From Treponemataceae bacterium (lineage in GTDB: Bacteria; Spirochaetota; Spirochaetia; Treponematales; Rectinemataceae), in the NCBI GenBank assembly GCA_963678065.2, contig CAXXVZ010000003.1, forward strand, positions 608,001 through 672,000: DNA of 64,000 bases. Direction: 5' to 3'. Shown one piece after another: positions 42,128 to 43,836 of the stretch; positions within the stretch are counted from its first letter, which is position 1, and each line of letters begins with the position of its first letter. The notes beneath the pieces are model-generated. The model had not been told where the DNA came from, did no database searches, and was given only the letters and a program-made list of their open reading frames with translations. The position numbers and the translations under genes are program-made.

Positions 42128-43836
42128 ATACGGAGTGCCTGCGGAAAATCCTTCCGGTCCTGTTCGCGACCTGCGCCCTATTCGCTGCGCAAGGCAGCCT
42201 CGGGGCGCTCGACACTTCACCAGTTTCGAGCGATATCACCATCGTCCTCGATCCGCGACTGGAAGCAACGATCACCCAGAGAGTCGAGTGGAAGGCTTCG
42301 GGCGGAAGCATGCATGGATTCTATTTCCAGGGCGAGCCCTTCGAACCCTCCTTCGATTCTTCCCTCTCGTATGCCGACATTCCGGGGGGGACACGACTCG
42401 GCCTCGACATAAAGAATCTCGGTAACGGGAAATACGACGTTCTCCTCGCAGGCGGCGCGGCCTTCTCGGGCACAGCCTTCTACACGCTCTCCTACAAAGC
42501 CCCGTTCGGGAAAGCCGGCCTCGTCGGCTCGACAAAGTCAGGGGAGGGCAAGGACCTCGTCTACTTCGACTATGGCCCCGTGCTCTGGGATTCCCCCCTG
42601 AAATCGCGCACAGTGCGGCTTGTCCTGCCGAGACGCGTCCAGGGCGGCACACTCTCCACCGAGGAGAAGAAAGCCATCCCCGTCCTGACGGAGGCCTCGG
42701 TCAACGAGGAAAATCGAATCGACTGGTACGGAAGCGCAGGCACGGGCGGATCATGGTGGCTCACCGGCCTCTTCTTCCAGGAAAACCTTCCAGCCCGAAA
42801 GACACAGAGGCTCAGACTCTATTTTCCCGCCGACTATCTCGAAATCCAACCTGAAGCCCTCGCCTCGGCAGGGGCTGGCTCCAAACCGCTCATTGGCGGA
42901 AACGGCGACGGAACCGTTGGGGATAGCACAAGAAGTCCACAAAGCGAAGCAGGGGGACCTCGGATAGTGCGTCCCGGTGATCGCTTCATCCCCGTCGTTC
43001 TTGCGGGCGCCTCGCTCGCGGCGGCCGGACTCTTCCTCTACACCCGTCGACTCAAATCCTTTCGTAAAAAGAAAGAGCTTGCAAAGACGATTTCCTGGGC
43101 CGGAGACGCATGGTCTCCCCCCCGCATCCTCGCCGGCAGCTACCAGATTCCCGGTAAAGTGGCGGAAAAGCTCCATCCGGTCGAGGTCGCCATCCTGATG
43201 GAGCTTCCCATGCCGCGGGTCGTGGCAATCATGCTGGAGGGCCTATCCCGCCAGGGCATCGCCGAAGTCATCAGCAGGGATCCACTGCAGATCAGAATTC
43301 TCGGCACAAAAAAGGCAGAAGCGGGTTTCGAGGAAGATTTCCTCGCGGCCTTCGACTCCGAAGGTCGCGTCCTCTCAGGGCTGCTCGCCGATTTTTTCGA
43401 AAAAACCATCGCAGGGCTCCAGGAGAAGACCTGGGATTGCGATCTGGAGGCCACGAAGGCGTATTACCGCGCCCTCATTTCGGATCTCGAGGAAAAAGAG
43501 CGGGCCACATCCGAAACGGAGCGGGAAAGTTTCATGGAGGGGCGCCGGAGCATCCCCTATTACCACTACTGGATGGGGTATTACATGCTTGGCCGCCACG
43601 ACAGCTACGCGGACATGCGCCTTCCCGATGGTTTCTCGGGCGGATACGGGGCCTTCATGAAGAGCGCCGCCTGTTTCTCGGGATGTTTCGCGGCCCCCGG
43701 TGGAACAGTGGATGCCTGCTACTCGGCCTGCCACAATGCCTGTCATGACGCGTGCCACTCCGCCTGTCATTCCGCCTGCCATTCGGCCTGTCACTCCGCC
43801 TGTCACTCGGCCTGCGTGTCCGGAGGCGGTCATTGA
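42124..43836 (+). CDS. DUF2207-like single-pass membrane protein with C-terminal (ACxx)9 Cys/His repeat tail
   Basis: Signal peptide; beta-rich domain; TM [19 protein letters not shown] then [20 protein letters not shown]...LEGLSRQG segment; ends [40 protein letters not shown]. Confidence 0.85.
   Translation: [570 protein letters not shown]
43714..43821 (+). repeat. 9 x 12-bp imperfect coding tandem repeat (GCS TGY NNN NNN)
   Basis: gcctgctactcg gcctgccacaat gcctgtcatgac gcgtgccactcc gcctgtcattcc gcctgccattcg gcctgtcactcc gcctgtcactcg gcctgcgtgtcc. Confidence 0.95.

Follow-up and report, generated by a model that had tools for sequence, protein, structure and literature searches.

The window analyzed here is a 64,000-nucleotide stretch of a contig from a Treponemataceae bacterium (GenBank assembly GCA_963678065.2, contig CAXXVZ010000003.1, positions 608,001 to 672,000). 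It contains a gene for a 570-residue membrane protein, which we call the carrier, and the carrier ends in a tail of nine four-residue units rich in Cys and His. The gene that follows encodes a radical S-adenosylmethionine (SAM) enzyme with a SPASM domain and a predicted recognition element (RRE) for RiPPs, peptides that are made by the ribosome and then modified post-translationally. The genes and features of this cassette are listed below in window positions, with the basis of each call in parentheses; ORF stands for open reading frame, TM for transmembrane, and pLDDT for the predicted local distance difference test.

41348..42127, + strand: upstream membrane protein, weakly XpaC/Halogen_Hydrol-like, accessory and lineage-restricted (ORF, Pfam, recurrence)
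42124..43836, + strand: carrier, a DUF2207-like single-pass membrane protein of 570 residues (ORF, hydropathy, Pfam matches in orthologues, Atlas cluster names)
42124..42210, + strand: predicted signal peptide, residues 1-29 (hydropathic h-region at residues 4-30; helix in the model)
42211..42843, + strand: predicted extracytoplasmic beta-sandwich, residues 30-240 (AlphaFold pLDDT 95-98)
42982..43074, + strand: TM helix, residues 287-307 (42982-43044), and positive-inside cluster, residues 308-317 (hydropathy)
43141..43623, + strand: predicted cytoplasmic winged-helix/helical domain, residues ~340-500 (model)
43645..43689, + strand: conserved YxxFMxS-CFxGCF segment 5' of the repeats, a candidate leader or recognition region (column counts)
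43666..43836, + strand: carrier tail interval, the last 56 codons and the stop of the carrier ORF
43714..43836, + strand: (AC[HY]x)9-GGGH tail, the predicted substrate core (nine four-residue units, then GGGH and the stop)
43845..45248, + strand: RRE-radical SAM-SPASM enzyme (start placed at the ATG at 43845)
45238..46149, + strand: predicted four-TM protein with a soluble C-terminal domain (start placed at the ATG at 45238, overlapping the stop of the enzyme gene)

From position 43714, the tail consists of three initial units, five ACHS units, ACVS, GGGH, and the stop codon. The last 57 residues of the carrier contain 11 Cys and 8 His, compared with 3 Cys and 4 His in the remaining 513 residues. 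Tandem Repeats Finder describes the array as having period 12 with 78% matches. A scan of all six frames of the 5.27-Mb genome for at least four Cys at four-residue spacing returned 21 matches, of which this one alone is a regular ACHx ladder. The original prediction had given the array as nine units of 12 bp and had counted 11 Cys and 8 His within these coordinates, all of which a recount reproduced. It had also claimed that the ACHS units differ only synonymously, and indeed they form five distinct 12-mers, 1 to 3 nucleotides apart, that vary at four silent third positions only. The odds that four of four changes are silent by chance are about 0.22^4 = 0.002, which is modest taken alone; the case for selection at the protein level is decided by the orthologues.

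To collect these, GTDB genomes were scanned with six peptide patterns, all located outside the tail, which yielded 86 relatives, the best 80 of which were examined. The taxon labels of tail carriers include Spirochaetota, Myxococcota, Acidobacteriota, the FCB group, Bacteroidales, and a Clostridium. The tail is in frame in 73 of 73 complete orthologues; the other seven loci end with the contig before or at the tail. Counting the window copy (n = 74), 58 tails have 9 units, 9 have 10, 5 have 8, and 2 have 11, and in none of the 74 genes are the ACHS units all identical in DNA. Over the last eight units, the proportion of synonymous sites that differ from the window (pS) is 0.83, against at most 0.043 for nonsynonymous sites (pN), both being crude counts uncorrected for multiple hits. 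Serine codons in ACHS units are AGY in 68 of 418 cases and TCN in the rest. In a 65-row alignment, whose rows were chosen to reach the carrier C terminus, 23 of the 33 invariant columns fall in the tail, and identity to the window is 94.5% for the tail, 43.9% for the ectodomain, and 53.8% for residues 311 to 450. The motif CFxGC[FY] precedes the repeats in 61 of 74 tails. The tail is under purifying selection at the protein level, as the original prediction had proposed; it had also suggested a check of repeat number and substitutions across homologues.

Given the conservation of the in-frame tail in orthologues, we reject a microsatellite or an alternative-frame artefact. In 73 of 74 genes the tail can also be read without a stop in the +1 frame, and in 69 of 74 in one of the reverse frames; codons of this kind would lead one to expect this, and it is no evidence for a second gene. 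The tail is covered by contigs assembled from three RNA libraries, all from a single lake study, and these contigs may stem from transcripts or from DNA in the libraries.

The genes for the carrier and the enzyme are linked. Among loci with at least 3 kb of downstream sequence (n = 59, window included), the radical SAM gene is present in 58 and the gene for the four-TM protein in 56; in the single locus lacking the former, the enzyme sits on another contig of the same genome. Whole-genome searches in four cases in which the enzyme was missing or cut at the locus, and in one control, recovered it in five of five (E < 1e-195). Across 151 related genomes, the carrier occurs in 75, the enzyme in 74, and the four-TM protein in 78; 73 genomes have both carrier and enzyme and 75 have neither. 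In the three one-sided genomes, the loci lie at contig ends. The distribution of the four-TM protein follows the same pattern. These relatives are kin rather than independent samples, and we attach no P value to the co-occurrence. Clustering of ORFs from 103 loci showed that only the carrier (101 loci), the enzyme (92), the four-TM protein (71), and the upstream membrane protein (55) recur widely, and no peptidase or exporter recurs beside the cassette in this set. The stop codon of the upstream gene overlaps the start of the carrier (ATGA). Its product matches Pfam PF10112 at an E value of 0.013, under the cut-off, and is present in most Spirochaetota loci and undetected in the most distant ones.

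A scan of metagenomes by DNA pattern gave at least 120 stretches from 4 of 64 parts. At least 57 frames end in a tail of this family, and the remainder are mostly other-frame noise. Among the matches listed, 23 of the 26 loci of at least 4 kb carry a radical SAM match of 300 bits or more; of the three without one, two leave less than 600 nucleotides for such a gene, and L087 leaves 2.5 kb. The carrier tail is real and under strong selection, and it belongs to a widespread, uncharacterized radical SAM cassette.

The four-TM protein received no family assignment in a Pfam search, and its Atlas clusters are unnamed; one of them is commonest in Thorarchaeota. In its soluble domain, the residues of Q-x-Q, N, YxYxV, and RQ do not vary, and 3 of 55 orthologues give weak DUF2207_C matches. 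In three loci (L026:1057-4410, L015:7454-10993, and L050:7630-9918), the matches to the enzyme and to the four-TM protein share one stop-to-stop frame, possibly a fusion or a frameshift.

The carrier is called DUF2207-like after matches among its relatives. Pfam DUF2207 (PF09972) matches 23 of 65 orthologues at E ≤ 0.1, with a best E value of 2.4e-6; the window copy itself has no match, and the Atlas clusters that contain the carrier are named DUF2207-like. In the structural model, a flexible linker joins the beta-sandwich to the TM helix, after which come a helical domain and the tail helix. The beta-sandwich resembles the lumenal domain of ribophorin-I/Ost1 (VIA Z 15.2, root mean square deviation [rmsd] 2.9, 183 residues aligned to 6c26), and its predicted fold, for which Foldseek was used as well, is that of this domain and of the aminopeptidase-N N-terminal domain. 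The cytoplasmic domain matches TIGR04222 at an E value of 0.036 (13.7 bits, short of the cut-off of 43) and is weakly GOLPH3-like (3kn1, a middling Z of 5.6). The tail is modelled as a helix with pLDDT below 50.

The original prediction had placed the tail in the cytoplasm on the strength of a signal peptide, a single TM segment, and a positive cluster. Each of these elements recurs in prediction across orthologues: an N-terminal h-region in 68 of 69, a TM segment with a Kyte-Doolittle (KD) hydropathy of at least 1.6 in 65 of 65, and, over the next 15 residues, a net positive charge in 63 of 65 (mean +3.5, versus +0.1 before the segment). A second, mildly hydrophobic stretch absent from that account lies at residues 353 to 374 (KD 1.67); residues 345 to 380 reach a KD of 1.6 in 44 of 65 rows, and nothing later does so in any of the 65. 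A second TM segment here would flip the tail outside. We reject this possibility, without regarding it as disproved, on account of E354 (conserved in 62 of 65 rows), E360, R365, and P362, the winged-helix fold of the region, and an insertion score of +7.1 versus -0.9 for the first TM segment (biological insertion scale). Given the h-region, one strong TM segment with a positive flank, and no later TM segment, the best reading of the models is that the carrier is N-out and C-in, with a cytoplasmic tail.

The enzyme matches Pfam Radical_SAM (94.5 bits) and SPASM (33.1 bits), both over the cut-off. Its CxxxCxxC motif is intact, with Cys invariant in 59 of 59 orthologues, and seven SPASM Cys are invariant as well, none of them after the CX2CX5CX3C block. 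PqqD, the RRE family, matches 19 of 59 orthologues at E ≤ 0.5 (best, 5e-4) and does not match the window copy, whose N-terminal 75 residues are modelled as three strands plus helices. Over residues 9 to 421, the model aligns with SkfB (Z 28.0, rmsd 3.8, 340 residues), followed by SuiB (Z 25.4), CteB (23.1), and the cyclophane synthase ChlB (22.8); the SkfB and SuiB alignments both begin at N-terminal residues 5 to 9. Because of the PqqD matches and the full-length structural match to the RRE-bearing SkfB and SuiB, we consider an RRE to be present. The protein combines the domain features of RRE-dependent radical SAM/SPASM maturases: a radical SAM domain, a SPASM domain, and an N-terminal RRE. 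It reaches no NCBIfam equivalog; among the 25 best of 68 families inspected, the best is AhbD at 137.9 bits against a cut-off of 500.

The six proximity positions around the catalytic site read Y-T-I/V-S-S-S, with Y, T, S, S, and S present in 59 of 59 orthologues. For comparison, Precord et al. (PMC10288494) give Y-T-I-S-K-L for the sactisynthase StsB and F-F-T-S-H-Q for the ranthisynthase CteB. By our reading, these positions are Y-T-F-S-Q-L in SkfB, S-S-I-S-H-A in PqqE, and F-L-T-S-I-A in SuiB. Agreement with the window enzyme is thus four of six for StsB, three for SkfB, two for PqqE, and one each for CteB and SuiB. A predicted complex of the enzyme with carrier residues 340 to 570 scored 0.41, versus 0.00 for the best control, with runs sharing at least 20% of contacts and a partner pLDDT of at least 62. 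This lends weak support to an interaction. Of 157 solved complexes, 116 reach the mark, as do 2 of 215 mismatched pairs; at scores of 0.60 or less, only 18 of the 157 reach it, and so do both mismatches. The score may also reflect likeness to solved RRE-peptide complexes. The loop after CxxxCxxC (44254-44340) carries a short duplication, ACGDVACGD, and a low-confidence insertion absent from most orthologues.

The tails come in at least three dialects that share one enzyme family. Across 127 distinct tails, Ala precedes Cys in 1,169 of 1,213 cases, the second residue after His is Ala in 1,029 of 1,047 and the third is Cys in 1,036 of 1,047, and the residue before His is Cys in 974 of 1,028. Because the positions after His are near-fixed, the one before it is less so, and insertions fall between Cys and His, the repeat unit is H-x-A-C. 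Alongside tails of the window's kind (type I), type II tails mix ACHS with ACVHS or ACVCHS and end in CVSSF or CVGRF, next to enzymes with the same motifs. No match to the four-TM protein gene was found beside type II loci, which include L109:878-5731 (- strand), L081, L090, L117, L132, L135, and L144. At L109, the enzyme gene is followed by one for a coiled-coil protein and one for a small membrane protein that has two CxxC pairs at its end, in place of the four-TM protein.

In type III, represented by L260:1119-4283 (- strand), the carrier is a homologue whose CACACACVSCACACACAGGG tail contains no His, and a radical SAM gene adjoins it. The homology of this carrier extends over residues 30 to 447 (hhalign 98.9%), and the protein ends in CACACACVSCACACACAGGGGCT. 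Its enzyme is 38% identical to the window enzyme (E = 1e-63) and scores 285 bits on the family profile, against 101 for the next enzyme in the window's genome. A quick tree with long outgroup branches, used solely to place it, puts the L260 enzyme inside the family on a long branch. No gene for the four-TM protein was detected beside L260. A search for further His-free loci matched 2 of 301 genomes, one of them with a type I carrier, so that one locus was gained; seven relatives have tails similar to the L260 CACAC tail. In the supplement of PMC10288494, row 3350 has an ACHS/ACVHS repeat resembling type II, and rows 3034 to 3036 have CACAC tails resembling type III. Ala-Cys is the sole dipeptide common to all three tail types.

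Some pattern matches do not belong to the family. None of 52 viral matches has a carrier or radical SAM profile match, and the match at L201 is another frame of a QPVT repeat. An unrelated system at L154:944-6700 (- strand) pairs a 144-residue precursor, with a signal-peptide-like start and an ACH[GS] motif, with four radical SAM genes. The best NCBIfam matches of these enzymes, below cut-off, are DynA, AmcB, and DarW; two have WHGGEP, and a PDB sequence search with one L154 enzyme gave no match.

We propose that the tail serves as a RiPP-like substrate tethered to the membrane, and that the adjoining enzyme cross-links its Cys residues as thioethers. That the tail is a substrate of this enzyme is very probable. 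If it is, the chemistry would probably be directed at Cys, and Cys-directed chemistry would in turn be likely, with slightly less assurance, to yield thioethers; the full proposal is held tentatively, a little short of even. Sec export is predicted to place the beta-sandwich outside and the tail inside, and the RRE to dock on the cytoplasmic part of the carrier, possibly at the YxxFMxS/CFxGCF segment. Then 5'-deoxyadenosyl radicals may take hydrogen from residues near each Ala-Cys unit, and each Cys sulfur would close a ring with a loss of 2 Da, the sactionine type being somewhat favored. The result would be a rigid ladder of up to 9 to 11 rings, which likely stays attached to the carrier because no peptidase or exporter is conserved nearby. 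In the step of which we are least sure, and which we regard as doubtful, the rigid, His-lined ladder would bind a transition metal or dock the four-TM partner, forming the inner terminus of either a transmembrane sensor or a metal buffer.

Several observations weigh against this proposal. The thioether assignment would come from comparison rather than from biochemistry. An acidic acceptor at the fourth residue after Cys, as in PapB, is absent, since that residue is another Cys. The top NCBIfam matches of the enzyme are heme-synthesis enzymes; its fifth and sixth proximity positions (S, S) fit neither StsB nor CteB, and Y-T-x-S falls in a clade termed polyfunctional in PMC10288494. Alignment to the published ligands of CrpC suggests that auxiliary cluster I (AuxI) has four Cys and AuxII three, which is opposite to CrpC, for which an open AuxI has been proposed. 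The strong fixation of His in types I and II is left unexplained by pure Cys chemistry, and the argument from His-free tails draws on one locus (L260) and three supplement rows. The metagenomic carrier at L087 has no radical SAM match in its 2.5 kb of downstream sequence. Against the conservation of the tail itself, the database proteins P0007, P0009, and P0018 carry shorter tails of three to five units, P0008, P0013, and several more have the tail region in another frame, and the end of the L077 tail is altered; the short-tailed and other-frame proteins may be assembly errors.

On present sequence comparisons, we would rank Cys-directed modification first, an unmodified metal-binding tail second, and a His cyclophane third. 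If the tail bound metal or Fe-S through Cys and His, the enzyme would have another target (the four-TM protein, a lipid, or a small molecule) or would need the tail only for docking or for storing clusters. This reading would account for the 11 Cys and 8 His found among 57 residues; the fixed H-x-A-C spacing would put His and Cys on one face of the modelled helix. We think it rather unlikely: that helix has a pLDDT below 50, an RRE marks peptide substrates, the sister tail with alternating Cys and no His retains the same enzyme family, and the fixed Ala before Cys is left unexplained. The enzyme might instead cross-link His to the Ala at the second position after it, giving an HSA cyclophane like those of triceptides, or to the Cys at the third. 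This would fit the fixed aromatic-x-Ala (with Tyr or Phe able to replace His in the first unit), the H-x-A-C unit marked out by insertions between Cys and His, and the known HAA cyclophanes (PMC11499958); the unrelated L154 also pairs its ACH[GS] peptide with enzymes whose best matches include DynA and AmcB. However, XyeB, GrrM, FxsB, YhhB, AmcB, and DynA all fall outside the 25 best families of the window enzyme, which has FTGGEP where two L154 enzymes have WHGGEP and whose model aligns better with SkfB (Z 28.0) than with the cyclophane synthase ChlB (Z 22.8); Val also follows Cys in the first and last units. We prefer Cys chemistry because the same enzyme family adjoins a homologous, His-free carrier, and consider the His cross-link distinctly unlikely. 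A c-type heme at the overlapping CX3CH motifs, raised by the AhbD/NirJ matches, was rejected given scores far below cut-off, shared Cys, the cytoplasmic side, and the His-free sister.

Two further alternatives keep the tail as a Cys-modified substrate or are compatible with it. Each Ala-Cys could become a thiooxazole or other Cys heterocycle (-4 Da each), giving a tethered, metal-binding ladder and an oxygen-independent counterpart of those MNIOs (oxidative enzymes that depend on multinuclear non-heme iron) that accompany TIGR04222 membrane proteins. Ala-Cys is the one dipeptide shared by every tail type, SbtM makes a thiooxazole from Cys (PMC11002830), Cys-tailed TIGR04222 membrane proteins have been proposed as MNIO substrates (PMC12452194), and weak TIGR04222 matches occur (E = 1.3e-4 at L260, 0.0047 for P0081, and 0.036 in the window). 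Yet those matches are under the cut-off of 43 (13.7 bits in the window and 21.7 at L260), TIGR04222 tails are predicted to be periplasmic (PMC12452194), and the SbtM model gives the L260 enzyme 64.9 bits against a cut-off of 350 and is outside the 25 best of 68 families for the window enzyme, leaving this chemistry quite unlikely in our view. Alternatively, the tail could be modified and then cut free as a RiPP by an unlinked protease or by the four-TM protein, the carrier being a large leader. The core length and end are fixed as in RiPP cores (nine units in 58 of 74), and the four-TM protein, having no known family, could be a peptidase. Nonetheless, no peptidase or exporter recurs in the 103 clustered loci, a conserved ectodomain (44% identity) makes an odd leader, and type II and III loci have no detectable four-TM gene; release is therefore distinctly improbable. 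Being a matter of what later becomes of the tail, it does not conflict with thioether chemistry.

Among the closest parallels is CrpA/CrpC of Methanococcus voltae (TIGR04463; PMC13692751), in which the neighbor of an RRE-radical SAM-SPASM enzyme is likewise a large protein that carries a Cys repeat at its C terminus. In CrpA/CrpC and QhpC/QhpD, thioethers are put on a protein rather than on a short peptide (PMC13692751). CrpC, like the window enzyme, has seven SPASM Cys. However, CrpA is a 28.8-kDa protein with a 17-residue repeat, whereas our carrier is integral to the membrane and its repeat has 4 residues; CrpC has the profile of a ranthisynthase, whereas the window enzyme has an SkfB/StsB-like active site and another auxiliary-Cys pattern, and TIGR04463 is outside its 25 best NCBIfam families. 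The predicted CXXX-repeat system (TIGR04114-04119) shares a Cys at every fourth residue beside a radical SAM/SPASM gene. Its targets are short peptides (model length 98), unlike our membrane-protein tail; the target model TIGR04117 gives the carrier 13.8 bits against a cut-off of 50 and matches 7 of 65 orthologues at E ≤ 0.1, and the maturase model TIGR04115 has a cut-off of 350, above the enzyme's best score for any family (137.9 bits).

Among the group 1 sactisynthases SkfB, StsB, and AlbA, SkfB ranks first of the solved structures by sequence, by Foldseek, and by VIA, and StsB has the same first four proximity residues. Nevertheless, their identity to the window enzyme is about 22%, the StsB model gives 83 bits against a cut-off of 625, and they act on short secreted peptides that contain hairpin Cys-to-acceptor pairs. 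More generally, sactipeptides and ranthipeptides have short precursors, divided into leader and core, that are released and exported, whereas the carrier is a 570-residue membrane protein lacking a conserved peptidase or exporter across the 103 loci. The His triceptides HaaA/HaaB and HtkA/HtkB (PMC11499958) share a repeated His-x-Ala, and the aromatic-X-X core motif of triceptides is present here (H-x-A for 1,029 of 1,047 His). Theirs is another enzyme branch, however, and our system has a Cys ladder and a His-free sister; the enzyme's best NCBIfam score (137.9 bits) is below the cut-offs of XyeB, GrrM, FxsB, YhhB, and AmcB (310 to 450). The His-Xaa-Ser (Hxs) system also differs, since our repeat is H-x-A-C with period 4 and HxsC4 gives 55.8 bits against 500.

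The MNIO-associated TIGR04222/DUF2207 proteins (PMC12452194) share with our cassette a membrane carrier, a related internal domain, and a Cys-rich C terminus proposed as a substrate. In contrast to their low-complexity Gly/Ser tail, ours is a near-invariant repeat, predicted to be cytoplasmic, behind one TM segment and beside a radical SAM enzyme. Tails like ours appear among the "Other Uncharacterized" precursors of PMC10288494, beside RRE-associated radical SAM enzymes (a singleton beside PKL36244.1, and group 40); those entries, in the part drawn on here, give precursor sequences alone and neither note the membrane carrier nor describe a test of the tails. A DUF2207 mutant of Streptococcus mutans is reported to have stress and biofilm defects, and tails go unmentioned in the part of that paper cited here (PMC10457818). 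A search of open-licence literature, with subscription papers outside its scope, found no description of this cassette. As a broader speculation, which we consider unlikely, DUF2207/TIGR04222-type receptor-like membrane proteins could be a general platform for Cys-rich tails that are rebuilt by dedicated RiPP enzymes and kept attached, by MNIOs in aerobes and by this radical SAM family in anaerobes; 9 to 11 Cys-derived rings, new in type (thiooxazole, or links from Cys to Ala or His) and located at the cytoplasmic end of the carrier, would then do the work of a transmembrane metal or redox sensor with the four-TM partner.

Just upstream, a sugar-utilization block (36136-41279), unrelated to the cassette, contains glycosidase-like genes and a LacI regulator, and looks lower in GC by eye. 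Downstream lie a glycosyltransferase-like ORF (46187-47350) and, 1.3 kb beyond the cassette, a small 2x[4Fe-4S] ferredoxin-like gene (47423-47710) whose promoter is strong and sigma-70-like (47423-47451) and whose terminator is a hairpin (47684-47710); the latter gene is not conserved beside the cassette at other loci.

Cross-linking by a radical SAM enzyme on a membrane-anchored protein would, if true, be new. Few known cases involve large proteins (QhpC and CrpA), and we found none for an integral membrane protein. The cassette is widespread in uncultured, anaerobe-rich lineages, with at least three tail dialects and one enzyme family, and has a cultured carrier in Rectinema subterraneum. 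The predicted substrate is a short, well-defined C-terminal segment, and its chemistry would give a first handle on the function of DUF2207-like proteins.

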